Made by a program: the position numbers and the translations under genes. This document shows, piece by piece, positions 3,422 to 46,475 of a stretch of 64,000 bases of DNA. The DNA comes from Candidatus Babeliales bacterium. Its GTDB lineage: Bacteria > Babelota > Babeliae > Babelales > Chromulinivoraceae. The stretch lies in contig JAGOTL010000003.1 in the NCBI GenBank assembly GCA_018061805.1, forward strand, positions 1,416 to 65,415, written 5' to 3'. The notes beneath the pieces were generated by a model that made no database searches, was not told the DNA's origin, and saw only the letters and a program-made list of their open reading frames with translations. How positions within the stretch are numbered: the stretch's first letter is position 1; each line of letters starts with the position of its first letter.

Positions 3422-3436
3422 ACATAGTTACTTTGC

Positions 3437-3471
3437 AAAAGAGATGGTGTTAAAATACCATCTCTTTTTTT
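3437..3471 (+). terminator. Rho-independent terminator after aspS
   Basis: Stem aaaagagatggt / accatctctttt with 8-nt loop, followed by a T-run. Confidence 0.75.
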
Positions 3472-3586
3472 ATGCCTAATGTGAGCTTAGGCGTTGCAAA
3501 AGGATTTAAATCTATCCCTTAATATTGATTTAGCGGCTTTAAAAACTGTATTTTAAAACTAAATACGTAAAAAAGGGGTGGGGATC

Positions 3587-7601: not shown

Positions 7602-8771
7602 TTAAAGTTGTTCAATAACTTTTTTTATTGGTTCAAGAGGAACTTCTGCGCAGGATTGAAAAGCTGTCATATAGTGATGAATGTTTCTTTGCCAGTTGTA
7701 TTTATATGTATCTATAAAATTACTTGTTTGAATAGCAGTATATTTTAGACCAAAATTTTCGGATATAAACCAAAACGCTGAATCAACAAGTAGTTGAAAT
7801 ATTTCAATTACCTGTGTCCCCGGTTTACAAAATAAAATGTTGGTTAATCCTGCACCATGTTCTGAAACAACGACATCAGCATTGTTAAACAATAAAATTT
7901 GGTCAATCATTGACAGTGTACTGAGCTTATATCTTTCAAAGCCTTTTGCTTCAAAAATCTTGAAAATTTCATCTTCGTTTTTTATTTTTCGCATAGGAGC
8001 ATCGCTTCGTGAAGCAAAAACTTTTTTTGATAAAGGAATAGATGCTTCATGTTTTTGTGCTGCTTCAAGCAATTTATTGCGAACATAATTTGCAAGAGTT
8101 GGATGTAGCAATAGGCCAATATGATTTTTGAAACCGAAGTTCATGTTAATAACCATTGAAGGTACAATTAATTCATCAGCTTGAATGCAATAATCAAGAC
8201 TACGAGGTGCAATAATTTTACGAGTATCAACCCCCCATAACTCTAAGGTTTCTTTCATATAATTTGAGTATGCGTCAATATACAACCAATCATATTCTAT
8301 GCCATGCATTTCAAGAAGAGCAAGTCGTCCAAGAACTTCACCGATCCAGTGGCAATAGCTGTTGTACACATATTGGGCTATGACAGCAACTCTGCCGGGT
8401 ATTTTGTGAATAGATTCTTCATTGATTGGCACTATATTGCTTAAAAGGTGTGGTTGATCAGCCCATATCATTTCTTTTATAAATTGATCTTCAATGAGTA
8501 CAAACCCAAACTGTGACTGAACTTTCCCATGTGGAATATTTAGAATGAAACATTCTTTAAAATATCCTTCATGAGGAAATAGCGGGGCAGGGGGAAATTC
8601 AGGTATATTAAAATATACATTTCCCAAGCATGGCATGTATCCAATCTCAGGATGCTCTTGCAGTATATGAGCCAAAGGAGCTACGTTGAAACTAGATGCA
8701 GTGCTAGTGGTAAGTAATAATATAAAACCAATGGATATGTTCATGTAAGATGATAAGACCTGTTTGTGCAT
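7602..8771 (-). CDS. GT61/DUF563-type glycosyltransferase with N-terminal signal/anchor
   Basis: C-terminal pattern KKVFASRSDAPMRKIKNEDEI...DQILLFNNADVVVSEHGAGLTNILFCKPGTQVIEI matches the GT61 (DUF563) signature HGAGLTN. Start at ATG 8771 has an AAGGAA RBS with 6-nt spacing. Hydrophobic N-terminus NISIGFILLLTTSTASS. Confidence 0.65.
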   Translation of the reverse strand: MHKQVLSSYMNISIGFILLLTTSTASSFNVAPLAHILQEHPEIGYMPCLGNVYFNIPEFPPAPLFPHEGYFKECFILNIPHGKVQSQFGFVLIEDQFIKEMIWADQPHLLSNIVPINEESIHKIPGRVAVIAQYVYNSYCHWIGEVLGRLALLEMHGIEYDWLYIDAYSNYMKETLELWGVDTRKIIAPRSLDYCIQADELIVPSMVINMNFGFKNHIGLLLHPTLANYVRNKLLEAAQKHEASIPLSKKVFASRSDAPMRKIKNEDEIFKIFEAKGFERYKLSTLSMIDQILLFNNADVVVSEHGAGLTNILFCKPGTQVIEIFQLLVDSAFWFISENFGLKYTAIQTSNFIDTYKYNWQRNIHHYMTAFQSCAEVPLEPIKKVIEQL

Positions 8772-8858: not shown

Positions 8859-10091
8859 TTATTCAGGTGCAATTAAAGATCTTTTTTTTCTATGATAACT
8901 AATTGCAAATTGATGCGTTTTATCTCTGATTTGTAAGAGCAATGCATCTTCTGGATTGTGAGGATCAAGTTTTATATAATGTAAAAAATCTGCAGATATG
9001 ATTGTTTCTTCTTTTTTGGCCAGACCTACAAGTTCAGCTGTTCCTATCCATGGTTTAATAGCACTTATTTGTCCTTTGCCACCATCAACAATGATAAGAT
9101 TTGGGTACTCTGATTTGTTTTTATAGCGTCGTTGTACTATTTCACGTAGTGCAGCATAGTCATCTTGAGAGATAATAGAGTTAATTTTAAATCTGCGAAA
9201 CGATTTTGGTTCTGGTTGTCCATGTACATAGCGGATACAGCTTCCAACGATAGCAGAGCCTTGTAAGTGTGATATATCAAAACAATCTATGACATAAGGG
9301 ATATGTTTTAAATGCAGTTTTTTTTGTATTGCCTGCAGTATTGGTAAAAATTTCTCATTGCTTTCTGTGCGTTGTTTGCTTGGCATGGTGCTTAACTTTT
9401 CAAGGGTATCTGCAAATGCTTCAAAATTTTGCTTGTAGTTTACCAGTATGCGAGCTCGTTCATACTGTAAAGCTTGAGAAGCATTTTTTATTTCTTGGTC
9501 AATTTGTTTAATGGCAGATTTTAGATTGTTATTTAATAAATGTTTGGCGAGCGTGACGCGGATATTATAAAAATCAATATCAAAATCTTGAGAACAAGAA
9601 CCTGCGCATATACCGATATGATATTCTAAGCAACCGTTTGGTATTTTTTTAGAACAGAGTTTAAGTTGAAATGTTTCCATTAAAAAATTATAAATACTGC
9701 GAGCTACTTTTTTATTTAAAAAAGGCCCTACGTAGGATCCTTTTTTTAATTTTGTTCTAACGATTGATATAGTTGGTATTTTTTCATCTGAAAAAAATAA
9801 ATAAATAAAAGGATTTCCCTCTTTGAGCAGACTATTATATTTTGGTTGGTATTTTTTTATGAGATCAACTTCAAGGTACAATGCTTCAAGCTCACTGTTG
9901 ACAGGTATGGTTTCTAGACGTACAGCTTCATGCAGTATGCGTTCTACTTTGTGGGCATCAGGATTATTAAAATATGAAGCAATACGCGCAGCAAGAGATT
10001 TTGCTTTGCCTATATAGATAATTTCATCAGATGTATTGTAAAAAAGATAGACACCTGGTTTTTTAGAAATATTTTTAGGCCTTTGAAGCAT
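8859..10091 (-). CDS. uvrC: Excinuclease ABC subunit C, short form lacking C-terminal (HhH)2 domain
   Basis: GIY-YIG motif (GVYLFY...IIYIGKAKSLAARI). UVR-like segment (QALQYERARIL). C-terminal endonuclease module (IDCFDISHLQG...IIVDGGKGQ...HQFAISYHRKKR). Only 410 aa against roughly 600 for typical UvrC. Confidence 0.85.
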   Translation of the reverse strand: MLQRPKNISKKPGVYLFYNTSDEIIYIGKAKSLAARIASYFNNPDAHKVERILHEAVRLETIPVNSELEALYLEVDLIKKYQPKYNSLLKEGNPFIYLFFSDEKIPTISIVRTKLKKGSYVGPFLNKKVARSIYNFLMETFQLKLCSKKIPNGCLEYHIGICAGSCSQDFDIDFYNIRVTLAKHLLNNNLKSAIKQIDQEIKNASQALQYERARILVNYKQNFEAFADTLEKLSTMPSKQRTESNEKFLPILQAIQKKLHLKHIPYVIDCFDISHLQGSAIVGSCIRYVHGQPEPKSFRRFKINSIISQDDYAALREIVQRRYKNKSEYPNLIIVDGGKGQISAIKPWIGTAELVGLAKKEETIISADFLHYIKLDPHNPEDALLLQIRDKTHQFAISYHRKKRSLIAPE

Positions 10092-13000
10092 TATGAAATC
10101 CTTGAGCTGTCAGATTGTCTGAGTTTTAAGAATGCCGTTGTATTAAATTGAAAATTTGCTGATCCTGCAGCATTGTTTTGTCGATAAGTGATGTTGTGTG
10201 TTGGCAATGTATGACTGAATATAAATGGATGTGTTGATGTTGTAAACAATGTTGTTGGTGTAGCAGTGTAACCATTGTTACTTGCTTGCACTGTGTTTAC
10301 AGGCGTAAAGACAGGGCTTTGTTGAGCTTGTGAAGCTTTTTGTGCTTGTTGTTGAATATATAATGTTTGAGCTTGCGTAATAGTTTCATATGTAACTTGG
10401 CTTATAGTTTGATTTTGCACAAACAATGATAATTCTTTGAATACATTATATGTTTTTACAGGGGTAGGCACTGTTTGAGATGTTACAGGTGTTTCTTTGG
10501 TATACATATTTCCTGTGACTAAGCTGACAATTGCTTGTGCTTGTGGCGCTGTCGGAGGTAAGCCTACCTGAGCAGGAGAATTATCATTTTCAGGGGTAGA
10601 CGTAAAGATGACGTAATCAACTATTGGTTTATTGGTATTATCTTTGAGTGTTTGTAAGCAGGTATAAAGATATATGCCTTGCTGTAGCATTATTGGTTGT
10701 ATACAATCGAGCATAAAATTACCAAATTTAATTTTTTGTAAACTTTTTTCAACGGTAGAACGTTGTTTTACGATAAAATTGTGCAACGCAGTTGGTAGTA
10801 CTCCAAATGCTGATTTTTCATAGAGCTCTAAGGCTTGAGGTATTATTTTGATAATTTGTTTTTGCTGATTAAACACATAGCCAGTAACTAAGCTTATAAG
10901 CACGTTGCTTGCAGCATCATATTGGTCGTTTGGTGCTTTTCCAATGTTTGTTATTGTACCATTATTGTTGGATGCAAAGATAAGAAAATCAGCAGGATTT
11001 TGAGGATTAAACTTTTTAAGATCAGTGTGAACAGATGCATAGATATACTGACTAAATAAAATTGATTGCTTTGAAAATGGTGTTAAGGGAATGGATCCAA
11101 AGCTTGGATTTAAAGCATTGTGCAAGATGAGTCTATCTTTTTTTCCACGCTCTATTTCTGACACTTGATTTGTTTTTGGTCGGACATTGATATTTGTTTT
11201 TGGCGTAATTTGTGGACTTGTCTGATTCCATTGTATTGCAGCGCCAGAAGAAATAATACCGTACATTCTTTGGCTTTGCAGTGGAATGACTGAAACTGTT
11301 TTTTGAAATATTGGTACTGTATTTTCATCGATGTGTATCATGATAGTTAATTTATCGCGATCAAGTTTTGCTTTTAAAACATAGGTATGTTGCTCGTTGA
11401 GCTGTGCGCTTTGAGGCAACTCTTCTTGAAGTAACCAAGGTTGTTCATTCATGTTTTCATATACGCCAAACATTAAAGGACCTTGTGGATTTGTTCGGTA
11501 TAAAACAAGCATTTTTGATAAATATAATTCGTTGAGATCGACAACGTCAGGATTCAAGTAAGGCGTTGTTGATTGCTTGTTGTTGATAGCATTTTGTAAT
11601 GCATTAAAGTTAGCAGCGATATTTGCAGGTGTGGTTTTAAGAAGTGAAGCAATATATTCAGGAGCAAAATAGTTATGATAATTGCCACCTAAATATATTC
11701 CAACATGAAATTCTGATTCAAGAGTGTATAAAAATTGTAAATTGATATTTACTTCGAGTGGATCTAAAGGCTTCTTAGGAACCATAGTAGGAGTTAAGCT
11801 ATCAATTGCTATACATCGCTGATTAAACCATTGTTTGCTTACCTGATCATTGTTCGTGGTAAAGAGCTGAGGATCTTGTGCTATTTCTTGTGCGTATGGA
11901 AAATCAGGACGGCCTGTTGTTGTGGTGTAAAAACTTTGTGATGGATATAAATTTAAATAACCACTTGTAAGGCCCCACAGTGATCCTGTATTACCCGGTA
12001 TGAGCTGTGTTGAACTATTTGGCACAAGTTGCATGAGGTAAATTTGTGCTAGGACACCGACTATTTTTTGTTGGTATTGATTAACAGCTGCATCGTTATA
12101 ATTTTGAAATAAAGAAAGACCGAGAGAATAGTTACCAATTGCTGCTTGTTGTTTTAATTCTAATTCTTGTAAATAAGCTAAATCGTGTGCAGCTGTTGCA
12201 AGTTTACTTTGCGTATTTGTATTCCATAAATTTTGTAAAACAGATCCTTGCTGTGTTTGTTGTAGTGCGTTAAGTTCATCTTGGTTATATGCACCTATGA
12301 TTGATGTGAGATTGAATGCAATGTTCATAACAGCGCCTATAGGTGAGAAAATTTTTAAGCTGTTTTTTAAATAACGTAACGCTGTTTGTGGTTTAGTTTC
12401 GGATGCAATTTTTTCTGCAACTTCGACAGCTTTTTTTGCTTGAGATAGTTCTTTGGTTGCGCTTTGTACCTTGGCGTTGAGCTGTCGATACGTTTCTTGA
12501 TCGGCGCTTTCTTTATCAGTTCCTATTGATTCTGTTAGTTTTTCTTTGGCAGCTTGTAGTTTCGTTTGCAATTGAGATAATTCTTCTTCTTTAGTTTCTA
12601 CTTGTGCTTTTGCTTCTTGTGCAAGATCTTCATTAGATTTATCAAAAATATTACTTAAGCTTTTTGGTAGCGATTTGAAATTTTCAAGAGTACTTTCTAA
12701 TTTTTCTTGTGCTGTTGCAACGATTTTTGTACTCCATGAACGTGCAGTTTGTTTTGCAGCGCTTGTGATTGTGCTTAATGCTTTTTTTTGTGCACTTTCA
12801 GAAATTAATTTTGCTTCATTTGCCAATTTTTCACGTAAATTATTTTCAGCAGCAGTGACTTCATCTTGTGCGGTTTGTATTTTTACAGGATCATCAGATA
12901 CTTTTGCTTCAGATAATGTTTCTTCTGCATTTGATAATTCTTCTTGAGCTGTTGTTATTTCTTCTTGCAATGCGTCAACACTTGTTTTTTCTATAGAGCC

Positions 13001-15187
13001 CATGATCATGGCGTCTTCTTCAGCATTCACCGTAGCCCCCGCGCCACCTGTTGCAACATCAGTAACTACGTCAGCAGCAATACAAACAGCAACACCCATA
13101 ACTTGGTTAATGATTGATCGTTGAGACTCCAGGGCATTGGTTACTTTGTTTTCTGCAGCTTTACCAAATGCTACGGGATCAAATTTTTGTCCTGTGGAAG
13201 CATCATAAATACCTTGGCCAAGTAGTGATAAGGGATCAAACGATAAAAAGATAAAAGTTATTTCGCTCGATAAATCTATAAACAGTGTCGTGATAGAATT
13301 TATAATAACACCAACAGCTTGCATAACTGCTGCAATGTTTGCTTCATTCATTTTAACTTCTTGTGTATATGCAGTTGTAATATCTGTAACACAGTCTTGC
13401 AACGTGTCATGCCATGTATCTAAAAATTCATTGCGTCCTTGTTTGGTAAAAATAGCCATAGCTCCTTTACCAATGAGTGCTACAACATCAGATAAAATTT
13501 CAGTAACATCTACCACAGATTCTGCAGCCAGAATTCCACCTAGTCCAACAGTGTATCCTGTTATTTGTGCTGTGACTTGAGCAATAGCGCCTGCGGTACT
13601 GTCAATGACTTCTGAAATATCAGCACCCAGTTTTTGATCTTGAGTGATAACGCCTACTAAATCACCTGTAAGTTCACCAATTGGGGCTATGCCATTTTTC
13701 ATACTAGCAGTAAATTCATCGATACTGTTTTGAAGGTCAGTTGTTGCTTTGGTAAATTGTTGCTGCGCATCGGCGCTTAGTGTTTCGCCTTCACGCTCAG
13801 CACCTGGAACAAAAAAGAAAACTTTACACGCAATTCCGGCTATTCCCATACCAACTGCTTCTACAACATGCGCAATTGATTTTCCTGCATCTTCAACTCC
13901 TTTACCAAAATCTTCTGCCGCAGTGGCAATATCATGCCCTATGTCATCAAAAAATGATAAAAAGCTTTGTTGTTTTCCTGTTTGTTTTGGTGGTAGCTGT
14001 TGCGCGAGTGTTTGTATGGATCGAGGCGTTGGGTTAAGCATGGCACTTTTTTTACGAAAATCTTCCGGTTTAAAAGTTGCATGCGCAGGATGCAATGATT
14101 GGGTATGAATGTTTTCAGCTTTTGCTTTAGCAGATAACAGTTCATTGAGTAAAACATAGTCGTTAGCTTGATAGGGAAATAAGTTTGGCAACAATGCAGC
14201 ATTGCTCACTGTTTCTATAACTTGTATAAGGTTTGATTGGGTCATGTGATGTGTTATTTGGCCATACATTTCATAAAACATGTAGTAACCAAAGACATAT
14301 TCTTTTAAAGGGCTTTGTATTTTTTGAGAAGATGATAACAATTGTTGATTAGTGATCTCTTGTTGGTTTTCAATATTTGCGCGAGTTCCAAGCAATGCAT
14401 GTAAATCATGTGTAAGGTTGTAAAAAGAAGTTTGTCTAAATTCGACCACATATTGCTCTAAGGGAATCTCTTGATTCTTTTTTTGTATAATCGTTGGAAG
14501 ATTTTGCCAATTTGGAATTTGTGCAAGATAGTAGTTTTTTACATGCTCTTCAAGTTTGAGCTTGGTTCTGACGACAGCGTTCAGGGTTCTTAAGTTTGTA
14601 TAATCTTGATTATAGTACGATGTTTCAAAGTGTGGTAGATAGTTGAATTCTTGTTTTTCAGTATTGTGTAAAATTTGTAAGGCAATTGCAAAATAAGCAA
14701 AACAATCTGCAACCATGGTTTTACAGATCATTTGCCATAAAGGAGATTGTATAAGGTCTTGTGTTGTCAATGTTGTTTGCAACCATCCTTGCGATTGTAA
14801 CAATTGTGCTGTCGGTAGATGTGGAACATTCGTGTTGTTATCTTGTAAAAAAGGTGCAAAGTCAGGCCTGTATTGTTGAAATTTTGGATCAACGGATACC
14901 TTGTGAAGTTTTGCCATAAAAATAAGATACAAGTAACTGTTTTTTATGTGTTGAACTTGCAAGGTATCCATGTTGATTCCAGATGATCCAAAAATAGTAT
15001 CAATTTGAGACCATATTTTTTTGGTAAAAGCATCTTGTGGTTGCAGCCTTGAAAAAGGAAGAGCGCTAAAAACTTCAATAGAATTATGGTCATTCAGATA
15101 CGTTTTTAAGGGCGATATCTGTGACGCTGCGTGAGTGATGCATGGTATTATTATGAGTAATAATTTGAATATATAACCATAGTTCAT
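10091..15187 (-). CDS. Giant secreted protein of unknown function (1698 aa)
   Basis: Signal-like N-terminus MNYGYIFKLLLIIIPCITHAAS. Gly/Ala-rich hydrophobic segments around aa 415-720. Coiled-coil E/K/Q/A block around aa 735-935. Beta-sandwich-like module around aa 1110-1325. Q/T/P-rich tail. Its stop overlaps the uvrC start by 1 nt. Confidence 0.85.
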   Translation of the reverse strand: MNYGYIFKLLLIIIPCITHAASQISPLKTYLNDHNSIEVFSALPFSRLQPQDAFTKKIWSQIDTIFGSSGINMDTLQVQHIKNSYLYLIFMAKLHKVSVDPKFQQYRPDFAPFLQDNNTNVPHLPTAQLLQSQGWLQTTLTTQDLIQSPLWQMICKTMVADCFAYFAIALQILHNTEKQEFNYLPHFETSYYNQDYTNLRTLNAVVRTKLKLEEHVKNYYLAQIPNWQNLPTIIQKKNQEIPLEQYVVEFRQTSFYNLTHDLHALLGTRANIENQQEITNQQLLSSSQKIQSPLKEYVFGYYMFYEMYGQITHHMTQSNLIQVIETVSNAALLPNLFPYQANDYVLLNELLSAKAKAENIHTQSLHPAHATFKPEDFRKKSAMLNPTPRSIQTLAQQLPPKQTGKQQSFLSFFDDIGHDIATAAEDFGKGVEDAGKSIAHVVEAVGMGIAGIACKVFFFVPGAEREGETLSADAQQQFTKATTDLQNSIDEFTASMKNGIAPIGELTGDLVGVITQDQKLGADISEVIDSTAGAIAQVTAQITGYTVGLGGILAAESVVDVTEILSDVVALIGKGAMAIFTKQGRNEFLDTWHDTLQDCVTDITTAYTQEVKMNEANIAAVMQAVGVIINSITTLFIDLSSEITFIFLSFDPLSLLGQGIYDASTGQKFDPVAFGKAAENKVTNALESQRSIINQVMGVAVCIAADVVTDVATGGAGATVNAEEDAMIMGSIEKTSVDALQEEITTAQEELSNAEETLSEAKVSDDPVKIQTAQDEVTAAENNLREKLANEAKLISESAQKKALSTITSAAKQTARSWSTKIVATAQEKLESTLENFKSLPKSLSNIFDKSNEDLAQEAKAQVETKEEELSQLQTKLQAAKEKLTESIGTDKESADQETYRQLNAKVQSATKELSQAKKAVEVAEKIASETKPQTALRYLKNSLKIFSPIGAVMNIAFNLTSIIGAYNQDELNALQQTQQGSVLQNLWNTNTQSKLATAAHDLAYLQELELKQQAAIGNYSLGLSLFQNYNDAAVNQYQQKIVGVLAQIYLMQLVPNSSTQLIPGNTGSLWGLTSGYLNLYPSQSFYTTTTGRPDFPYAQEIAQDPQLFTTNNDQVSKQWFNQRCIAIDSLTPTMVPKKPLDPLEVNINLQFLYTLESEFHVGIYLGGNYHNYFAPEYIASLLKTTPANIAANFNALQNAINNKQSTTPYLNPDVVDLNELYLSKMLVLYRTNPQGPLMFGVYENMNEQPWLLQEELPQSAQLNEQHTYVLKAKLDRDKLTIMIHIDENTVPIFQKTVSVIPLQSQRMYGIISSGAAIQWNQTSPQITPKTNINVRPKTNQVSEIERGKKDRLILHNALNPSFGSIPLTPFSKQSILFSQYIYASVHTDLKKFNPQNPADFLIFASNNNGTITNIGKAPNDQYDAASNVLISLVTGYVFNQQKQIIKIIPQALELYEKSAFGVLPTALHNFIVKQRSTVEKSLQKIKFGNFMLDCIQPIMLQQGIYLYTCLQTLKDNTNKPIVDYVIFTSTPENDNSPAQVGLPPTAPQAQAIVSLVTGNMYTKETPVTSQTVPTPVKTYNVFKELSLFVQNQTISQVTYETITQAQTLYIQQQAQKASQAQQSPVFTPVNTVQASNNGYTATPTTLFTTSTHPFIFSHTLPTHNITYRQNNAAGSANFQFNTTAFLKLRQSDSSRIS

Positions 15188-31994: not shown

Positions 31995-34775
31995 TTATGC
32001 ATTGGCATGAGCTTGAAAATCACCGGCACAAATTAAAGCACCAGCTGTCGACTCACGTACCATTCCTAAAATATTAGTACCTGCTGCAATAAATGTAAGT
32101 GGGCTATACGCACTTAACATTGGTAATATTACGTGGCTACTAGATATTCCTGATCGTATAGAACTAAAAAGTTGCTGTACAAAAGGAGTGGCCTGTGAGT
32201 TTGAAGGTTGATCGATTCCAATAAAATAACTGTTTGCAATGTTCCAAGATCCGTCCGTAAAATAACTGCTGACATAGGTGTCAAAAATTAAGAATGCAGT
32301 CAGCTTACCTTGTGTTGTGCTACCTGGTTGTGCAGCATACATATCGGGAAGTGATTCTACAACGCCATTTTGTATTGCAAAACGGTGGATACGAGCTTGC
32401 TGTGTTCCAAATGTGTTATCAAGTATGATCAGGTTGCTTAAATTTTTAAATTCACGATTCGGATTAGGAGTACCTGCTGTTGAAGCAGGAATTGCAATTA
32501 TTTGGCTAATTGCAGGAAGTCCTTGCGGAATAGTTATTTTTGAAACGTTGAGTGATTCAATTTTATATAATCCATCAGTTGTTCCCAGAAGCATGTATCC
32601 GTTATCAATAATCATAGTTAGGAAATACATGTTACTGTTAAGCTCTGAGCTTGTGATAACAGTTTCAATATTTAAATCTGCAGTTGGTGTAGCTTTAAAT
32701 TTATTTGGATCAAGTGCAATTCTATAGACCGCGCTGGTAGTTAGGATATAAATATATGTTTGATCCCACACTAATTTTTTAACTTGTGAAAAGTCGCCAA
32801 CTGTTTTCCAAGTTTGTCCTGCATTAAGGCCAGCGACACTTGCAAGGTTGCCGGTCCAAGAATATCCAGCAGCGTCATCGGTGAGCACTGAAACACCGCT
32901 CATACCACCAGCAAAAACCCAGTGATTTGCGCCATTATGTGCAATTTCAGCTGCGACTAAAGCTGTGTGGTCATTAATATCTGCACCTGTAAATGTAAGC
33001 ACATCTGCGCCTGTCATAACATTTGGCCCAAAAAAGCCAGCGTGAGGTACGGTTGTGGTATCTCCTGTTTGTCCAATAGATACCATGTTATGACTTGCAC
33101 CAATCAATAATGAAATGGCATTGTTAAAACCAGGTGTTGTTTGTCCAAAATTAAAGACACCTTGCAAACCTTGCATACCAGATTGCGATAAAAAAGGTGA
33201 CAAGTTTGTGTCGGCATTAAATGTTGTTTGATAGAGCGTGTTGAAATTTGGAATTGCGCCTGGAGTTTGGGCAGCTAAGTAAAAACCAGACAGAGATCTG
33301 CCATCTACAAAGCTATATTTCATTTGTTTGTCTGTTCCAAGTACGCGTGTCCATGGTGTCCAACCAACGATATGACCCTCTGGTGCCATGATCGCTTGTG
33401 AGCGATAGGTGCCAGGTGCTTGTGTTGCTGTGTAAACATTACCAATTACAGCGTACACACTATCACCTACAACATACATATCTTGTAGTAAGTTTGGTGC
33501 ATCAATTGGAAGTGGGTTTGCGCCACCGACACGTATTTGGTTAATGATTGCAGCATTTGCCGGATTAATTTGAGTAGGATCTGTGAGTGCTGTTGTAAAA
33601 TTACGTTCTATAAAAATAGTTGGTGTAGAACCAAAACGAGTTGCGACCTTTGTATAATCAGCTATTTTTCCAAAATCAGTACCCGTTGTAACCAGTGGCA
33701 GAGCATAAATTGTTTCAGGAGCAGCACCATCATCACGAACAAAAACGATATATATCAAGTTTGTGCTTGTTTGTAGTGTGTTTATATTTTTTATACGGAT
33801 CGTGTTGCCATTGTACGCAGAAATTGCGGTATCTACTCCGGCAACGGCGGCATCTTTTACAAGAGAAATATAGTCAAGAGAGTATGTTGTAGTGTTGCCA
33901 GTGACGATTGTTGTGAGCATTGGTATCATTGCACCGACAGCAACGCCGCCAGCAGCAGATGTAGCTTCAAGTCCAATAGCTGTGAAGCGCGAAGCAAAAC
34001 CAAAATTTACCTGAGGTCCAAAAGAAGCAAGGTCAGGACCGCCAGCTTTTAAGGCTGCGGTGCTTGTAGTAATTGGTTCTGATTTTAATAATGTTAAGTA
34101 CGGTAAAACATTGTCATTGTTGACCGATAGTCCTTTAGCTTGGCCGAGTACAGCTACTGCTGAAGCACCAGTTCCAAATACTCCTGTTGCATATGCAGTG
34201 TAGATATTGGTTGCATATGCTTGAATGGCAGCGATATTGTTACCAACACCAAAATCATACGTCAGTAAGTTGGTTACGTTTGGTTTTTTTTCAGTTGGAT
34301 TTTCATAATGTTCTATATTTTCAACGGCATACACTGCAGTTGGAAAAGCATCGACGGTAAATACAGGCTTGTGCATTGAAACATCAAAGTTGGTAAATGC
34401 ATTACCCCACATAGGATTTGTAGCAGAAGTTGCAGCCACTCTGTCACCTACGAAAGAAAGCAAAGTAGCGTTTTCGTTAGTCATAGGAGTGGTGCCAAGC
34501 ATTGCTCCAGGATTGATGTATGAAGCAGCTTGTACAATAAAAGATAAACCGTAGGGTTTTGAGTCGTCACTTGCGATAGGATTTTGGTTTGCAGTCCACC
34601 AACGAGCAAAAGAAGTGTCTGACTTGGGGTCATATTTTACAAAGCCAACATTGAAACTAAACGTTGTATTTGTAGCAGCATTAGGATCATTGGAGCTGAC
34701 TTGCACGGTGTATGTTTTTAATGAAAAACAAACCAGAAGCATTATGTAATTGAACGTTTTTTTCATTGTCTTCAT
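31995..34775 (-). CDS. Large secreted/surface protein (926 aa), Thr/Ala/Gly/Asn-rich with few charged residues
   Basis: Signal peptide MKTMKKTFNYIMLLVCFSLKTYT. Beta-rich low-charge composition. 20-nt gap to the downstream OMP gene. Confidence 0.8.
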   Translation of the reverse strand: MKTMKKTFNYIMLLVCFSLKTYTVQVSSNDPNAATNTTFSFNVGFVKYDPKSDTSFARWWTANQNPIASDDSKPYGLSFIVQAASYINPGAMLGTTPMTNENATLLSFVGDRVAATSATNPMWGNAFTNFDVSMHKPVFTVDAFPTAVYAVENIEHYENPTEKKPNVTNLLTYDFGVGNNIAAIQAYATNIYTAYATGVFGTGASAVAVLGQAKGLSVNNDNVLPYLTLLKSEPITTSTAALKAGGPDLASFGPQVNFGFASRFTAIGLEATSAAGGVAVGAMIPMLTTIVTGNTTTYSLDYISLVKDAAVAGVDTAISAYNGNTIRIKNINTLQTSTNLIYIVFVRDDGAAPETIYALPLVTTGTDFGKIADYTKVATRFGSTPTIFIERNFTTALTDPTQINPANAAIINQIRVGGANPLPIDAPNLLQDMYVVGDSVYAVIGNVYTATQAPGTYRSQAIMAPEGHIVGWTPWTRVLGTDKQMKYSFVDGRSLSGFYLAAQTPGAIPNFNTLYQTTFNADTNLSPFLSQSGMQGLQGVFNFGQTTPGFNNAISLLIGASHNMVSIGQTGDTTTVPHAGFFGPNVMTGADVLTFTGADINDHTALVAAEIAHNGANHWVFAGGMSGVSVLTDDAAGYSWTGNLASVAGLNAGQTWKTVGDFSQVKKLVWDQTYIYILTTSAVYRIALDPNKFKATPTADLNIETVITSSELNSNMYFLTMIIDNGYMLLGTTDGLYKIESLNVSKITIPQGLPAISQIIAIPASTAGTPNPNREFKNLSNLIILDNTFGTQQARIHRFAIQNGVVESLPDMYAAQPGSTTQGKLTAFLIFDTYVSSYFTDGSWNIANSYFIGIDQPSNSQATPFVQQLFSSIRSGISSSHVILPMLSAYSPLTFIAAGTNILGMVRESTAGALICAGDFQAHANA

Positions 34776-37230: not shown

Positions 37231-37254
37231 TCATTGAGTGTAAGGACACAACAA

Positions 37255-38079
37255 ATGTTAAAAAAAAGCATGTTTATAGTAGCATTGTTAGGTGTAACAG
37301 AGTTGTATTCAGACAATAATCCTGCAGTTGTTGTGGGAGTTATTGGTGGAGCAACGGTTGTTGCTGGTACAGCGATTTATATCGCAGCACGTGAACCAAA
37401 TCCTATTAAAATAGATCGCGCGTATAAAACAATTGATTTGTATCAGATGCGCGTACAAAGCTATATGAAATATATGAATACTACAGAAGGTATTATGTAT
37501 TTTGTTAATCAACCACAATCATTCATGGAAATTGGGATTATGGTTGAACATGTTGAACAAGTCTATAAAGATATTAAAAAACGCTACGGTTCATGGTTTA
37601 CTCCGTGGAATTGGACGCATGAAATGAAAAAAGCGTATGACAATATTGGTGTGTTGTACAATGACATTGTTGTTTTAAAGTATGCATGTCAGTATGCGCC
37701 ACTTATTCGTGCATGTTCATATTGTCATCAAAGCTACACACCTGCTCAAATGTTAATTGCTGCTCGCGCAGTGTGTGCGGGTACAACATCATATCCATTG
37801 ATGGAATGTGTTGATCATATTCGTGATTTAGTGCGGACTATAAAATATGAACATCGTTTTATGCAGCATCATCCATTTACGCAAATTATGGAATATATTG
37901 TAAAATCACTTGTTGCAACATCTGAGTACATACAAGAACGTCAAGCATATGAACAATATAAGCAACAGCAACGTGTAGCTCAAGCCGCAGAATCGCAAGC
38001 ATCTGCCGCATGGGCGCAAGCAGAAGCTCAGAATAGACAAGCTCGTGCACTTGAAGAGCGCAATAGATTAGAGCGTTAA
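37255..38079 (+). CDS. Membrane protein, paralogue of 39122..39907, with Q/A-rich coiled C-terminal tail
   Basis: ATG 37255 sits 8 nt after an AAGGA RBS. Signal plus Gly/Ala-rich TM (VVVGVIGGATVVAGTAIYIAA). Shares TSYPLMECVDHIRDL...SEYIQERQAYEQYK with the paralogue. Confidence 0.7.
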   Translation: MLKKSMFIVALLGVTELYSDNNPAVVVGVIGGATVVAGTAIYIAAREPNPIKIDRAYKTIDLYQMRVQSYMKYMNTTEGIMYFVNQPQSFMEIGIMVEHVEQVYKDIKKRYGSWFTPWNWTHEMKKAYDNIGVLYNDIVVLKYACQYAPLIRACSYCHQSYTPAQMLIAARAVCAGTTSYPLMECVDHIRDLVRTIKYEHRFMQHHPFTQIMEYIVKSLVATSEYIQERQAYEQYKQQQRVAQAAESQASAAWAQAEAQNRQARALEERNRLER

Positions 38080-38084
38080 AAGTA
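38032..38084 (+). repeat. 53-bp perfect direct repeat, copy 1 (last 15 codons plus stop of the 37255..38079 gene)
   Basis: aatagacaagctcgtgcacttgaagagcgcaatagattagagcgttaaaagta is identical to 39003..39055 (checked base by base). Confidence 0.95.
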
Positions 38085-38115
38085 GATTTTAGGGATTTAT
38101 ATCAGGGACTTATAT

Positions 38116-38994
38116 ATGAAAAAGTGTTTAACGTTTATATTGTTGAGTAGTATTGGTATGCATGTTGATGCAGCCGATTTTTTTATTAATGCAGCCGATT
38201 TTTTTAAAGGTTTTAAGCAGGGCGTCAAGCAGGTTGTAGAATCTCATCGACATTATGTTTTTGATGAAAAAGCAGCTAAAGAAAATATAGTTTTTTCTAA
38301 TGGTAAAAACCTTAAAACACTTGAGGCTGAATTACAATCTAAATATCAAGGCACACCTATTTTTAGAGTGGTTAAAGACTATGGTTGTTTTACAGATGGT
38401 ATGCAGCACAAGGTTCTAAATCCTGCATATTCATGGCTCGATTACTCTCAACAAGACTTTGAAGAACAAAAATCAAGAAAAACAGGTGTTGTTTTAATGC
38501 CTGAAATGATCAATCAAATGAGTTATGATAGTGCAAACTTTATTACGTCTCATGAATTAGGCCATTCGCAATTGCCGTATGCGATACCGGTTATTTCAGC
38601 CTTGGCAAATATATCTTATTGGCCAATTGCTTATTATTGGAAAAAACGTTTTGGAGCAGGACCTTATAGAAATAGGCTCACAAAACACACATCAAAATTA
38701 CTTGCAGCTTATGGGATAACAACTTTTGCCAGCGGTGTAGCAGTAAATCTAGAAGAGCGTCGTGCAGATAATTTTGCGATAAAGCATTCAGATGCAAAAG
38801 CATTAAAAGGTGGCATAGAGTATCTTAAAACATCAAAAAATTCATTGCAAAATGAATATCAGAAACATGCGGTGTCTCGGTTTTTGCCTTTTAGTATAGG
38901 ATGGAAATATCTCGATCCTACTCATCCAAGTTTGGATAGTCGTATTGCAAAAATAGAACGCGCACTACATAAACGTTTTGCTAAAGATAATTAA
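38116..38994 (+). CDS. M48-family zinc metallopeptidase (secreted/periplasmic)
   Basis: Signal peptide MKKCLTFILLSSIGMHVDA. HELGH zinc motif. Downstream EERRADNFA and DPTHPSLDSRIAKIE, matching the M48 HExxH...ExxAD...HP..RI layout. In-frame 21-bp tandem duplication gives AADFFIN/AADFFKG. Confidence 0.75.
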   Translation: MKKCLTFILLSSIGMHVDAADFFINAADFFKGFKQGVKQVVESHRHYVFDEKAAKENIVFSNGKNLKTLEAELQSKYQGTPIFRVVKDYGCFTDGMQHKVLNPAYSWLDYSQQDFEEQKSRKTGVVLMPEMINQMSYDSANFITSHELGHSQLPYAIPVISALANISYWPIAYYWKKRFGAGPYRNRLTKHTSKLLAAYGITTFASGVAVNLEERRADNFAIKHSDAKALKGGIEYLKTSKNSLQNEYQKHAVSRFLPFSIGWKYLDPTHPSLDSRIAKIERALHKRFAKDN

Positions 38995-39002
38995 AGGTTA
39001 AA

Positions 39003-39055
39003 AATAGACAAGCTCGTGCACTTGAAGAGCGCAATAGATTAGAGCGTTAAAAGTA
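39003..39055 (+). repeat. 53-bp perfect direct repeat, copy 2 (non-coding relic of a gene 3' end)
   Basis: Identical to 38032..38084. Lies in the intergenic space after the M48 gene and is not attached to any ORF. Confidence 0.95.
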
Positions 39056-39121
39056 AAAATAATATTACTGTAAAAAAATTACAGTGTAAAAATTGTCGTT
39101 AGGTATATACGTGGAGGTTAT

Positions 39122-39907
39122 ATGTATATAAAAAAATGTTTCATGTTGATTGTTTGTTTGCTTAGTTTAGAGCAGACAGTTGTGAGTAGTGTGAAATACT
39201 ATGAAGTAAAAGAATTTTTATCTGAGCGTGCGTATTCGACATTAAATGCAGCTGATAAGAGCGCTGCAGTTTTGGCTGGAATCATGGGTTGTATTCTTGT
39301 AGGTGCAGCATGTAAAGAGGCTTACACTGAATTATCAAGAAAACTATCACGCAATAAGGATCTTGCAAACAGCATACAGCAAGCAGAAGCTGTTTATAAT
39401 CAATATCAACAGCGTATCAATGATGCCATTGAACAGATAAAAACTGTTTATGGAGTAGTGTCTTTTGTGAAATGTGAAAAAACAATGAGTGAATTATACA
39501 AATCGCACATAGGTGTTAATGGAATGTATGATGAAGTGTGTGCAGCGCGCACAAATTTTTCAAATTGTTATTATTCAGAAAAGCGTTCAAAACAGGTACA
39601 AGATACATATGACAAACTCACAGATTTGCAGAAGAAAGTTACTGTTTTAAAAGATATTTATAGATTTTGTTATATAATAACAGTGCATGATCGTTCAGAT
39701 TTAATAAATGCTATTAATAGACATTATATACAGTTTAGCGATTATCCGTTGGTACATTGTATGCAGGAGCTTAGAGTTCAGTTGCATTATTTATCCGAGA
39801 AGGGCGGTGGTAGTTTTGAGCAAATTTTAAAAAGTATGATTCCAAAAATTGCGCATTCTGTTGAGTATAAAAAAGAGCTTGAGGCGTATAACACGTCTAA
39901 GTGTTAA
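39122..39907 (+). CDS. Membrane protein, paralogue of 37255..38079
   Basis: Signal plus Gly/Ala TM (AAVLAGIMGCILVGAA). Conserved SDYPLVHCMQELRVQL...SVEYKKELEAYNTSK, colinear with the paralogue. Confidence 0.7.
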   Translation: MYIKKCFMLIVCLLSLEQTVVSSVKYYEVKEFLSERAYSTLNAADKSAAVLAGIMGCILVGAACKEAYTELSRKLSRNKDLANSIQQAEAVYNQYQQRINDAIEQIKTVYGVVSFVKCEKTMSELYKSHIGVNGMYDEVCAARTNFSNCYYSEKRSKQVQDTYDKLTDLQKKVTVLKDIYRFCYIITVHDRSDLINAINRHYIQFSDYPLVHCMQELRVQLHYLSEKGGGSFEQILKSMIPKIAHSVEYKKELEAYNTSKC

Positions 39908-42129: not shown

Positions 42130-44094
42130 ATGATTATTCAAATGATAGTATTACTATGTTTGCATTTTTCATATTTTTTATGTGCTTATCATAATGATGA
42201 ACCTACATTTCACGTTCATGGTACGATTGGGCGTGATATTGATACATTGCATAATGATGCAACACACAATTCTGAACCCAATTCTTTAGTTCACGTTGTT
42301 CAGTCTAATACGCGACCAATGAGTCAGTCAGAGTATAACCAACTTTGTAAGCAAGCAGTAGAGTTTGATGCGTATTGCAAAATGACATATGGCATGAATG
42401 CGCGTTCGCTAGAACATTGTATGTATCAAAAACCAGAAGCATTTATAGCGGATTTGTTGAGCAGAGATTATTTGCCTGATGTTGCTGTACTCGAGTTGCT
42501 TGCTATGTATAAGTATCGCCATGGTTATGAAGGTAAAAAAGAACATAAGATAGCACACCTTGTCAAAAAGGTTCAACAAGAGTTACAAAATCGAGAAAAG
42601 CAGCGCTTAGCTGCTTATACGGTTCAACCACAGCAATTAGTTCAATCACAAAAAAGTATACAACCAACGCAACAAGAATCTGCACAAAAACAAGCGCACA
42701 ATATTAAATCATTAGAACAAAAATATTCATCGTCAATGTTGTGTCATTCTTCTTATGGCTCATCATATCACAATGATCGACAACATGCTTTGCAGCACAC
42801 GCAAGCGCAAAGCTATGCAAAAACAGAGCAAACACATGAGCTTGATGCACAAACAGCGGGAATGCTTGAAGCTCACGGCATAGATAGTAAAAAATTTCAG
42901 AGTTTATCGGGAACAGTTTTTCAACATCAATTGTTTAAAGAATGTGCTGATCATTATAAAAAAGCAGCAATTGCTGTGTTTGAACAAGGACTTAAAAATA
43001 GTGGTATTGTTGCGCATGTCATTGAAATTACTAACGTAGCTTTTGCAAGTACGCAGCAGGAATCATGTGCATGGGCGGTAACGTTAAGTGACATAGCGGA
43101 AGTTTTGGCTGATACATCGCTGTCGCTGTGTAAAGGGTTGATTGAGTCTGGATGTAGCACCCTTGAAATCATTTGTAATCCAAAACAGTTGGTAGGGGCG
43201 ATGACAAGAGGTATGCAGTTTTTGGGAGGAGCTCTTGCCGCATATGATCAGCAACCAACTGTTGGGGTCGTACACTTGCAAGCGTGTCAGCAAGCATTTG
43301 CAGATGATGTTGTTTTGTTTAATCAGATGTGTGATCTGTCTAAAAAACATTTTATAGAATGGTGTCACAATAGTAGTGATCAAGAAAAGATACAAGAAGT
43401 AGTTAAGTTGGTTACAGATTTTACGATCACACCGTGGGTTGTTGGAAAAACAGTTAATGTGATAGGTAGAATTTTTTGTGAAGCGCAAAGCCTGGTTAAG
43501 TTTGGTCGCATAGTAGATTTGGCAGAAGAGTTAGGCTTAGGTTTTGAGCAAGCGCAGGAGTTGCTGTATGCAACTCAAGAAGGTTTGCAGCAGGTGCCAA
43601 CAACAGTTGCAGAAGTTGAAACAGTGGTAACGAGCTTGATAGAAAGTGAAGGGTTGTTCATAGAGTTGCAGAGCGAAGTTGCAGTGGTGATAGAAGAGGT
43701 TATAGAAATAGATGTTATAAGCAAAACAATTCAGGAGTTAAAGCAAACAGCTATAGTTCAATGTGAGATAGATACTTTGCGTTTATTAGAAAAAAATTTG
43801 GAAATAGCACAAAGTAGATCATTAAAGTCTATACGAATGCGAAAACTGTCCGATGGAAGAATAAGATATTATAGCGCAGAGACACCGGCTTTGAAAGTAG
43901 GCCCTACGCGTGGTTCTGCGTATGTAGCAGAATATGATTATAGGAGAGGTGTTGTAAGGGGTTGGTATGAAAGTTATGATTATATAGGTAATGTCAACAG
44001 AGTGCATCCTAAAATGTTAAATGGTAAGCAAGTCGATTCATTACATTACCCTCACACAAAAAAAGAATTAGAAATGCTTGCTCATAAAAATTAA
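42130..44094 (+). CDS. Sec-signal protein with compact basic C-terminal module (candidate secreted toxin/effector)
   Basis: GAGGG RBS. Hydrophobic N-terminus MIIQMIVLLCLHFSYFLCA. Q-rich linker. Helical Cys-containing body. Acidic V/E-rich stretch. Then the Arg/Tyr/Gly-rich last ~95 aa (RMRKLSDGRIRYYSAETPALKVGPTRGSAYVAEYDYRRGVVRGWYESYDYIGNVNRVHPK). Confidence 0.75.
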   Translation: MIIQMIVLLCLHFSYFLCAYHNDEPTFHVHGTIGRDIDTLHNDATHNSEPNSLVHVVQSNTRPMSQSEYNQLCKQAVEFDAYCKMTYGMNARSLEHCMYQKPEAFIADLLSRDYLPDVAVLELLAMYKYRHGYEGKKEHKIAHLVKKVQQELQNREKQRLAAYTVQPQQLVQSQKSIQPTQQESAQKQAHNIKSLEQKYSSSMLCHSSYGSSYHNDRQHALQHTQAQSYAKTEQTHELDAQTAGMLEAHGIDSKKFQSLSGTVFQHQLFKECADHYKKAAIAVFEQGLKNSGIVAHVIEITNVAFASTQQESCAWAVTLSDIAEVLADTSLSLCKGLIESGCSTLEIICNPKQLVGAMTRGMQFLGGALAAYDQQPTVGVVHLQACQQAFADDVVLFNQMCDLSKKHFIEWCHNSSDQEKIQEVVKLVTDFTITPWVVGKTVNVIGRIFCEAQSLVKFGRIVDLAEELGLGFEQAQELLYATQEGLQQVPTTVAEVETVVTSLIESEGLFIELQSEVAVVIEEVIEIDVISKTIQELKQTAIVQCEIDTLRLLEKNLEIAQSRSLKSIRMRKLSDGRIRYYSAETPALKVGPTRGSAYVAEYDYRRGVVRGWYESYDYIGNVNRVHPKMLNGKQVDSLHYPHTKKELEMLAHKN

Positions 44095-44103
44095 GGAAAA
44101 ACA

Positions 44104-44349
44104 ATGTATACGCAACAACAGTTTGGACGAGAGTTGAAAGAAAAAATTAAAAAGGGATCATCCCCTTCAGAAATAGGGTCATGGGCTCATGCAACGTATT
44201 ATGAATATTTATCTCAAATAGACCTAGATTTTGGAGAATTTTTATTGCAACTAGGCACTATGGAAATGGGTCCTGAATTTGAATTATCATATGAAAAATT
44301 ACATGAAATTGCAGATAGGTTGATAGCTGGCCAAGAAGTTAAGTTGTAA
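44104..44349 (+). CDS. Small acidic protein (81 aa), candidate cognate immunity protein
   Basis: Starts 10 nt after the stop of the 654-aa gene, with its own AAGGAA RBS. Acidic, no signal peptide. Paralogue at 44942..45187. Confidence 0.7.
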   Translation: MYTQQQFGRELKEKIKKGSSPSEIGSWAHATYYEYLSQIDLDFGEFLLQLGTMEMGPEFELSYEKLHEIADRLIAGQEVKL

Positions 44350-44405
44350 TCTAGAAATTATGATAAAAAATTTTATGTTCAGTATTGTTGAAGTTTTTCT
44401 AATTT

Positions 44406-44945
44406 ATGATTAAGCGAATTGTTTATGAATCTTCAGAAAGATATGGTTATTGGCAAGTGGCAAATGGTATAGCGCATGGTAAAAATGATATAGCTATGCT
44501 TTATCTGTCATTTAAATTACAGCATTCGGAGTGGGTTTTTGTTGATAAAGGCCATGATGAAGTGATTATAGTCAGCGAATTGACCAAAGAAGAGTATTTT
44601 AATGAAGAAGATCTTCCTACGTTGATTATGTCGCGAAAAAATTATGATGAAGTTATTAACGCATTGAATGAAAATCGTAATATGCCTAAGCAATATTTGG
44701 TTTTATCTCAAGATGATTTTGGGTGGATTTATTTAGAAGCAAAGGATGAATTATCTGAGCTGGATCTGATTTCCATCGAGCAAGATCAAAAAGCTGGGCA
44801 GGAGTGGGAAGTTGCGTGGAAAAAAAGAGCAAGTGAACATAAAGTGAAGCAGTTATTAAGATATTGGCATTATGAATTACGATGCTTAGCGATAAAAGTA
44901 TATAAAAAAGTGCGAGAATTTTTTGAAGATTTGTTTTTAATATGA
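44406..44945 (+). CDS. Acidic cytoplasmic protein of unknown function (179 aa)
   Basis: Clean ORF with an ATGA overlap to the next 81-aa gene. No obvious RBS and no recognisable motif. Confidence 0.55.
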   Translation: MIKRIVYESSERYGYWQVANGIAHGKNDIAMLYLSFKLQHSEWVFVDKGHDEVIIVSELTKEEYFNEEDLPTLIMSRKNYDEVINALNENRNMPKQYLVLSQDDFGWIYLEAKDELSELDLISIEQDQKAGQEWEVAWKKRASEHKVKQLLRYWHYELRCLAIKVYKKVREFFEDLFLI

Positions 44946-45187
44946 ATATAAAAAAACAATTTGGGCATGAGCTTAAAAAATATGTACAAACTAAAAAAAC
45001 AATATCTGCAATAGGTCATTTTGCATATTCTTATTATTTAGCAAACATTATGGATATTGATAAAGAATTTAGAAGATTTTTAATTGATTTGAGTACTATG
45101 GAAGATGGTTCTGAATTTGAATTATCATATGAGAAATTACATGAAATTGCAGATAGGTTGATAGCTGGCCAAGACGTTAAGTTGTAA
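44942..45187 (+). CDS. Small acidic protein (81 aa), paralogue of 44104..44349
   Basis: Same length. The C-terminal ~30 aa are nearly identical (TME.G.EFELSYEKLHEIADRLIAGQ.VKL). N-terminal two-thirds diverged. Confidence 0.7.
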   Translation: MNIKKQFGHELKKYVQTKKTISAIGHFAYSYYLANIMDIDKEFRRFLIDLSTMEDGSEFELSYEKLHEIADRLIAGQDVKL

Positions 45188-46316: not shown

Positions 46317-46475
46317 AAAAGACCTAAGTAAAGTAAAGCTATATATTAAGAATACCATTCTTAAGCCTTTTTAACAAATTTTGTCGTAAGATGATAGGTT
46401 AACAATTTAAAAAATAGAAGAGAACTGTTACACTAGTGCTTATAAATCTTGATCTGTATAAGCTGTGGGGTATTT

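Follow-up and report, generated by a model that had tools for sequence, protein, structure and literature searches.

Toxins that combine a signal peptide with a lineage-specific constant N-terminal domain and a polymorphic C-terminus form a described class that includes MAFB-N, Microscilla-N and the Amoebophilus proteins APD1 and APD2 (PMC3482391, section 37), and surface anchoring or clustering has been proposed for this class (PMC3482391). A candidate locus of this kind is described here from a Candidatus Babeliales bacterium, Babeliales being part of Candidatus Babelota, i.e. Dependentiae/TM6. It lies at positions 42130–45187 of a 64-kb window, by which is meant the whole 64,000-nucleotide (nt) stretch analyzed (assembly GCA_018061805.1, contig JAGOTL010000003.1, positions 1,416–65,415 of the forward strand). 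Comparison with homologous loci indicates that its four genes very probably constitute a polymorphic toxin-immunity locus.

A known toxin domain that bears on the locus is Ntox9, a computationally defined and uncharacterized domain (Zhang et al. 2012, Biol Direct 7:18, Table 1, PMC3482391). It is described as mostly-beta, with the ordered motifs RxY, E, WxE and H, and its reported carriers are RHS, type V secretion system (T5SS), MafB-N and PrsW proteins in taxa including chlamydiae and proteobacteria (PMC3482391). Zhang et al. predict that Ntox9 acts like colicin E3 and list no immunity protein for it (PMC3482391). No further literature mention of Ntox9 was found, nor any literature report linking Dependentiae/Babeliales to polymorphic toxins, and the TM6 comparative-genomics paper never mentions toxins (PMC4776705). 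As far as the literature found extends, the locus would be the first such system in the Dependentiae.

Four features of a polymorphic toxin system are represented: a constant N-terminal region with alternative tips, a downstream gene family specific to the tip, occurrence of the tip on other architectures, and orphan genes together with cassette exchange. The body/tip split, the tracking of the downstream gene, the shared tip and the orphan genes support the proposal of an earlier sequence-only reading of this DNA that the locus is of the polymorphic-toxin type. Because each part has significant homologues elsewhere in the same order, the arrangement, judged at the sequence level, is far beyond chance.

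A constant body with alternative C-termini

The toxin gene (42130–44094, + strand, as are all features of the locus) encodes a protein of 654 amino acids (aa) that matches the body hidden Markov model (HMM) at E 1e-215 and the toxin-core HMM at E 3e-43, and that is identical to NCBI 'hypothetical protein KBD08_01165 [Candidatus Babeliales bacterium]'. It is followed by an 81-aa gene (44104–44349), a 179-aa gene (44406–44945) and a second 81-aa gene (44942–45187). All four open reading frames (ORFs), their charge pattern and their tight coupling are present as the sequence-only reading had placed them. The first 81-aa gene starts 9 nt past the toxin stop. Its ribosome binding site overlaps the toxin stop codon (context TAAGGAAAAACAATG), a gap of 56 nt separates it from the 179-aa gene, and the latter is joined to the second 81-aa gene by an ATGA overlap. 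No terminator-like site was found on the + strand within the four-gene cluster, and the promoter/terminator scan gave nothing exceeding shuffled expectation. Six-frame HMM scans of the window returned the reported genes only, and none of the four proteins has a match in Pfam or NCBIfam.

In alignment A1, all homologues of the 654-aa protein are conserved up to a junction block of invariant columns, E495-x-E497-x3-T501-x3-E505-x-E507 (EVETVVTSLIESE; 43612–43650), and then divide into two classes that cannot be aligned. The window-type C-terminus is common to P0002, P0003 and the split pair P0004+P0012. The other class, the 'GGH' type, matches Pfam EndoU_bacteria (PF14436), an RNase domain, with P0007 scoring 27.2 bits and P0008 29.4 bits against a gathering cut-off of 25.3; the scores of P0005, P0006 and P0011 fall under that cut-off. 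When the fetched neighbourhoods of toxin loci were mapped with six HMMs, 6 of the 19 loci, representing 5 distinct sequences, had the body with the window-type core, and the others had the body with EndoU. Related genomes, which the sequence-only reading had proposed comparing, therefore do hold a conserved N-terminal body with variable C-termini, and by this comparison the 654-aa protein resolves into a lineage-restricted constant body and an exchangeable linker-plus-tip cassette.

Single genomes can carry several body-type toxin loci. In L006 (1–5972) two such loci stand in tandem and differ in both EndoU subtype and immunity family; in L005 another body gene is found where the contig ends (10114–10542); and the EndoU-type L003 and window-type L013 lie ~70 kb apart on one contig, k141_474467, of one metagenome-assembled genome.

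Mean identity to homologues per 25-aa bin is 0.10–0.24 before aa 200, 0.37–0.72 in the body and 0.08–0.15 past aa 526, so that conservation is low over aa 1–200, high over ~250–525 and falls sharply past ~526. Ten homologues align over 67–92% of the length of the protein, and the body (aa ~200–525) is conserved in ~20 Babeliales-type homologues. It is rare, with two loci in a scan of 185,579 species-representative genomes and six in one metagenome scan. The feature itself, aa ~201–525 (42730–43704), is modelled as all-alpha, contains conserved Cys residues and belongs to no known family. The 654-aa protein has 16 Cys, 13 of them within aa 31–507, and at six body positions at least 7 of 11 homologues also have Cys. 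The AlphaFold2 (AF2) model of the body has helices only and is of low confidence, a small helical domain at aa ~61–170 being its better part; together with the Cys count, this agrees with the long helical, Cys-containing body described from the sequence. No transmembrane-like segment was detected in the body, Foldseek gave no fold match for its model, and Pfam and NCBIfam gave no match. Homology of the 654-aa protein to a non-toxin structural family, which would have spoken for a different function, was likewise absent from the Pfam, NCBIfam and fold searches.

The cleavable-looking N-terminus that had been noted also stands. It is the sole strongly hydrophobic stretch of the protein (KD19 = 2.12; the next is 1.33 at aa 509) and forms a predicted Sec signal peptide at aa 1–19 (MIIQMIVLLCLHFSYFLCA; 42130–42186), called from hydrophobicity and with a putative cleavage site. 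The N-terminus is hydrophobic in 11/11 homologues, several of which have a K/R n-region, e.g. MKRLFLGFLVFASVLFSKN.

Past the junction, an acidic V/E-rich linker (aa 508–544; 43651–43761), modelled as one long helix, is shared by the window-type homologues alone and lies within the exchangeable cassette. The isoelectric point (pI) of the spacer at aa 508–565 is 4.32, versus 9.84 for the C-terminal module at aa 566–654, which bears out the description of a compact basic C-terminus behind an acidic spacer.

Downstream genes, cassette exchange and spare immunity candidates

Across the loci compared, the gene directly downstream depends on the type of tip. An 81-aa-family gene lies directly 3' of the window-type tip in 9/10 loci, namely the window, L001/L002, L005, L012 (with two tandem copies), L013, L008, L009 and two in L021. 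Loci with this pairing span Babeliales, Parachlamydiaceae, Fastidiosibacter and an Rhs island; the family matches are E 1.4e-20 in Fastidiosibacter lacustris (L009), E 2.4e-9 in an Rhs orphan cassette (L008), and E 1.6e-17 and 2e-15 behind two Rhs C-terminal (CT) orphans on the Protochlamydia naegleriophila plasmid pPNK (L021). EndoU tips, by comparison, are followed in 11/11 complete loci by a 132–179-aa family (L003/L004, L006a, L010, L011, L014–L016 and L019) or a ~213-aa family (L006b, L007 and L018), and never directly by an 81-aa gene. Linked small genes are thus present beside the homologues, as a toxin-immunity locus would have, and their family changes with the C-terminus type. Tip and small-protein identities also correlate across 9 pairs (Mantel r = 0.51, p = 0.007), which counts as supporting evidence only.

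The two EndoU-linked families have no Pfam match. They share weak C-terminal similarity at E ~1e-5 to 1e-9, seen among members at L003 8127–8525, L006 5331–5972, L007 8131–8775, L010 7049–7462 and L011 6956–7363, and may represent one divergent immunity superfamily. In L020, a 77-aa gene (3304–3537, Logan SRR24915807_42349) was tried as a member of the 81-aa family and rejected, with no family-HMM match and an hhalign probability of 0.4%. Its size and position are like those of the 81-aa family, and it could be a far-diverged member of that family or a form of immunity that arose independently.

The consistent presence of a tip-specific partner bears on the possibility that the toxin is instead a host-directed effector, acting on protist ribosomes or RNA like Amoebophilus APD1/APD2, with the small proteins protecting the producer before export. 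Babeliales are host-dependent, two ankyrin-repeat proteins are encoded just downstream in the window, two carriers of the toxin core are themselves ankyrin-repeat proteins and others are amoeba-associated (Parachlamydiaceae), and effectors that have a signal peptide and a lineage-specific N-domain have been described from an amoeba symbiont by Zhang et al. (PMC3482391). However, such effectors are typically without immunity genes (PMC3482391), whereas every locus here has a tip-specific one; several loci carry spare or orphan immunity genes, which are sensible only if an incoming bacterial toxin threatens; and the same tip/immunity pair occurs in classic antibacterial Rhs arrays. A host-directed role is therefore unlikely. 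Under the toxin-immunity interpretation, tip-specific and spare immunity genes imply attack from the bacterium's own kind, presumably in shared protist hosts.

The first 81-aa protein (pI 4.77), acidic and without a signal peptide, is the cognate immunity candidate by its placement behind the toxin core across loci. Comparisons of two related loci provide evidence that it travels with the tip. First, relative to P0002 (L001), the window shows 71% identity in the body (aa 201–507), 53% in the tip and 43–48% in the small protein. Second, relative to L005, body identity is 50% over the same residues, and the tip and the small protein are 82% and 81% identical. These discordant identities mean that the tip-plus-immunity unit has a history different from that of the body, and the cassettes, on this comparison, move independently of the body. 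That the amoeba-associated Babeliales and Parachlamydiaceae have this cassette in common would fit gene exchange between bacteria that live in the same protist hosts.

The L005 toxin gene (JGI Ga0394881_0004174) contains a single in-frame TAA in the linker at 7645–7650 (...DTLRLL*KNLEIAQSRSLKS...), which splits it into ORFs of 548 and 89 aa; the L005 immunity genes are intact. The stop could reflect a pseudogene, a sequencing error or read-through. It also lends some weight to the idea that the window locus is a decaying relic, the functionless remains of a cassette that a reduced genome had acquired laterally, as does the different chromosomal position of the locus in each genome examined. 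Yet all four ORFs of the window are intact, start in proper contexts and are translationally coupled, the candidate catalytic residues are all kept, and purifying selection on the body and the immunity families is evident across lineages. Decay is the least probable of the explanations considered, with hardly any weight left to it.

The second 81-aa protein is an additional, diverged copy that shares 56% identity with the first (E 1e-30), in keeping with the extra orphan immunity copies that had been predicted, and its closest relative (60%) is the L013 gene cognate to another toxin subtype. The N-terminal half accounts for the divergence. The two window genes are mosaic: among codons 42–81, 29 are identical and only 2 differ synonymously (85% nt identity), and codons 1–41 are 52% identical. 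This pattern suggests recent homogenization, gene conversion or recombination of the 3' half, and the 5' half probably carries specificity. The small proteins had been called acidic, which holds for the first 81-aa protein and, at pI 5.22, for the 179-aa protein; a small correction is that the second 81-aa protein, at pI 6.27, is barely so.

The 179-aa protein had been placed merely as a following gene. It does follow, but it is no bystander: it is homologous to 132–137-aa genes located behind EndoU toxins (BLAST E 1e-12 and 5e-16), and the HMM of this EndoU-linked family further detects L010 (E 3.5e-34) and L011 (E 1.1e-26). Since it belongs to an EndoU-linked family and no EndoU toxin is matched by HMM anywhere in the 64-kb window, the 179-aa gene is a candidate orphan immunity gene. 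A remnant of a displaced EndoU tip within the window was considered and is ruled out by the 56-nt gap and the missing EndoU HMM match. Similar trailing genes occur elsewhere, a 134-aa gene in L005 being 81% identical to the gene behind the L003 EndoU toxin and a 222-aa gene in L001 showing 58% identity to the one that follows the EndoU toxin P0006. Trailing EndoU-type immunity genes fit both displacement of an ancestral EndoU tip by the cassette and retention against neighbours' toxins.

Searches of the window 81-aa and 179-aa proteins against known immunity families (Pfam Imm*, SUKH, SuFu, CdiI and cloacin immunity) returned nothing significant, so that the suggested link to Imm families did not materialize, and none of 37 members of the 81-aa family matches Pfam. 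The 81-aa family is a candidate immunity partner for Ntox9, a tip without a curated model or structure.

The C-terminal tip and its relation to Ntox9 and colicin E3

The C-terminal toxin module occupies aa 545–654 (43762–44091) and is delimited by alignment, AF2 model and profile search. A conserved helix precedes a core of ~75 residues, DGRIRYY..E..GPTRG..V.E...G.VR.W.E.YD..GNVNRVHPK...G....HYP (alignment A2), in which R577, R579-Y580-Y581, E584, E601, W612-x-E614, R624, H626-P-K628 and H639 are conserved. The AF2 tip model consists of a long helix and then six beta strands, with a predicted local distance difference test (pLDDT) score of 90–95 over most of the beta core.

An exhaustive profile search with the tip finds 716 representative clusters at E<=1e-3, of which 255 reach E<=1e-30, and the tip motif lies within the last 110 residues in 126/127 motif-bearing proteins among the best 150. 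RHS_repeat is present in 10/40 long carriers, with the TIGR03696 Rhs core directly upstream of the tip (88–90 bits), and 2/40 are CdiA-type carriers with Fil_haemagg_2 and PT-VENN. The tip is also found on PT-HINT proteins, on one complete MafB in a mafA-mafB locus, on one SpvB/TcdB protein and on two ankyrin-repeat proteins, in Parachlamydiaceae as well as gammaproteobacteria. This widespread C-terminal presence on Rhs, CdiA-type, PT-HINT and MafB carriers identifies the tip, by its sequence relatives, as a shared polymorphic-toxin module that is not lineage-specific.

Some matches depart from the usual layout. The toxin core of P0210 (2107 aa) lies near the N-terminus (aa 133–241), and in P0031 (231 aa) it is fused behind DUF559 and MTES_1575 endonuclease-like domains. 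On the Cupriavidus metallidurans CH34 megaplasmid (NC_007974.2), tblastn detects the core at 1447748–1448038 with 46% identity (E 1e-21), in a stretch without a listed gene in a plasmid gene table known to be incomplete.

The locus might instead be an intracellular type II toxin-antitoxin (TA) module, serving addiction or abortive infection, with a long N-terminal part unrelated to delivery. The overlapping toxin/small-gene pairs do resemble TA operons, many core matches are short proteins of 77–231 aa, and a RelB-like gene lies near L006. Nonetheless, the order here is toxin-first, the toxin occupies the C-terminal ~17% of a 654-aa protein that has a signal peptide and a conserved body, and the core caps secreted toxins of the Rhs, CdiA-type and MafB kinds. 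In addition, many of the short matches come from contigs of ~0.5–3 kb, and for several the start falls within the Rhs core motif; they are therefore fragments or orphan CT cassettes. A TA module is very improbable.

The tip agrees with Ntox9 in several respects. First, R579-Y580-Y581, E584/E601, W612-x-E614 and H626 are invariant or nearly so and match the Ntox9 motif order. Second, the tip is mostly-beta, with six strands in the AF2 model. Third, the tip family is carried by RHS, T5SS/PT-VENN and MafB proteins and occurs in Parachlamydiaceae and gammaproteobacteria; a PrsW carrier was not seen among the 123 carriers scanned. The Ntox9 entry names no immunity protein, whereas the 81-aa family is consistently linked to the window tip. 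The tip is probably Ntox9, an assignment set by description (motifs, fold, carriers and taxa). The suggestion of an undescribed toxin family consequently fails for the tip, which is widespread (716 clusters) and fits the published description of Ntox9, and holds for the other parts of the locus, the constant body and the immunity families, which have no curated match.

The tip and its partner resemble colicin E3 and cloacin DF13 (PF09000, PDB 1E44) in pairing a small, basic, mostly-beta C-terminal module with a small acidic partner, and they share a local E-[YW]-D-x3-G-x-[VL]-x-G-[WY] hairpin, from which the sequence-only reading had drawn a lead to E3. The local 16-residue resemblance is real; the lead to homology did not survive. 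At E<=1, PF09000, proposed as the profile to search, matches neither the 654-aa protein nor any of 31 tip-family members. With hhalign, the tip and the verified 1E44_B residues 39–96 align at a probability of 0.75% over 16 columns; these are exactly the columns of the earlier-noted resemblance, a local hairpin that is not significant. In this register the position of the E3 catalytic His is variable in the tip family and that of the Glu is a conserved Arg. No E3 structure is among the top 50 Foldseek PDB matches listed. Homology to colicin E3 is thus rejected by Pfam, hhalign and Foldseek alike. By analogy, a convergent E3-like, metal-independent RNase mechanism of the tip is possible.

Proposed action, surroundings and described systems

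The following scheme is proposed. The 654-aa protein would cross the inner membrane via Sec and exit by the phylum-core type II secretion system (T2SS) or by another route, and the body may supply surface anchoring or target-cell entry. The tip would act as a small metal-independent RNase, lethal to cells without the matching small protein, and the cytoplasmic 81-aa protein would block it by direct binding. Spare immunity genes could guard against neighbours' variants or be relics of an earlier EndoU cassette. Likely targets would be competing bacteria in the same protist host. RNase activity of the tip is suggested by the EndoU alternative, the Ntox9 fit and the invariant R/Y/E/H/K in a ~75-aa beta core; toxicity and export route are, like it, presumed. 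Sec export followed by T2SS release is plausible: T2SS components are core genes of TM6/Dependentiae (PMC4776705). T2SS genes adjoin the toxin locus only in L007, with a GspE-like gene (MshEN+T2SSE) at 8957–10669, and in L012, with T2SS F and G at 1–1427; given the few loci, this may be chance.

More speculatively, the body might be a self-contained delivery device of a new type, either a soluble colicin-like receptor-binding/translocation domain or a surface anchor, though this is rather doubtful. If true, an obligately host-dependent bacterium without T5SS, type VI secretion system or Rhs machinery would deliver RNase tips to rivals or host organelles in a protist, the 81-aa and 132–213-aa proteins would be founding members of new immunity folds, and Dependentiae would allow direct tests of bacterial warfare within a eukaryotic host cell.

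Several points weigh against a polymorphic toxin-immunity locus as drawn here. The predicted signal peptide of the window protein has no basic n-region, and the body is poorly modelled, with a full-length AF2 pLDDT of 60.8 and values <50 over most of aa 290–515. Neither a conserved partner gene comparable to mafA nor a secretion gene is consistently linked, and the flanks differ at every locus. The Neisseria-type mafA-mafB locus L020 is an exception to the downstream rule, its overlapping 77-aa gene being not detectably related to the 81-aa family. The correlation between tip and small-protein identities partly reflects shared phylogeny. Besides the descriptive basis of the Ntox9 assignment, searches of Pfam, NCBIfam, PDB sequences and folds gave no match for the tip, the PDB sequence profile search giving noise only and Foldseek against PDB and BFVD nothing at E<=0.001 (best PDB E 0.095 among the top 50 listed), so that 'RNase' is analogy plus the prediction of one paper.

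The locus is flanked by housekeeping genes, priA upstream and a convergent RNase T-family exonuclease gene downstream. Upstream of priA, three consecutive genes (37234–39907, +) encode proteins of 281, 292 and 261 aa with hydrophobic N-termini, likely an exported cluster; the 292-aa protein matches Peptidase_M48 at 25.7 bits against a cut-off of 20.3. A 737-aa tandem Ddl fusion, in which Dala_Dala_lig_N and _C are each matched twice, is encoded at 46449–48662. The adjacent ankyrin-repeat proteins of 600 and 629 aa (48719–52477), the first with a hydrophobic N-terminus and highly repetitive units, are typical candidate host-interaction proteins of intracellular bacteria. The proteins of 1698 aa (10091–15187, –) and 926 aa (31995–34775, –) have no Pfam match at E<=1e-5.

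Measured against described systems, the kind of system and the EndoU alternative are already known, and probably the tip as well (as Ntox9). What is new is the constant body, the 81-aa immunity family with its connection to the tip, both EndoU-linked immunity families and the presence of such a system in Dependentiae.

The Rhs/CdiA arrays share the tip and the 81-aa family with the window locus, as seen in Rhs orphan arrays (L008 and, on pPNK, L021), and they likewise have a conserved junction, cassette displacement and orphan immunity genes. Unlike them, the window protein lacks YD/RHS repeats, the DPxGL core, haemagglutinin repeats, VENN, LXG and PAAR (Pfam/NCBIfam, E<=1), and its junction motif is E-x-E-x3-T-x3-E-x-E. 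The initial impression that no known trafficking module is present was accurate for YD/RHS, LXG, PAAR, TPS and MafB, none of which is matched in the 654-aa protein.

MafB/MafI of Neisseria, which with the wider MafB-N/APD class comes closest among known systems, offers a likeness in a signal peptide, a lineage-restricted constant domain, exchangeable tips, an immunity gene directly downstream and extra immunity genes. EndoU is among its tips, and the window tip itself occurs on one MafB protein. The window body, however, is not homologous to MafB-N (no PF06255 match), and the gene upstream of the window locus is priA, with no mafA-like lipoprotein partner; the true maf locus in the dataset is L020. 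The Babeliales body adds a new constant domain to the MafB-N/APD class.

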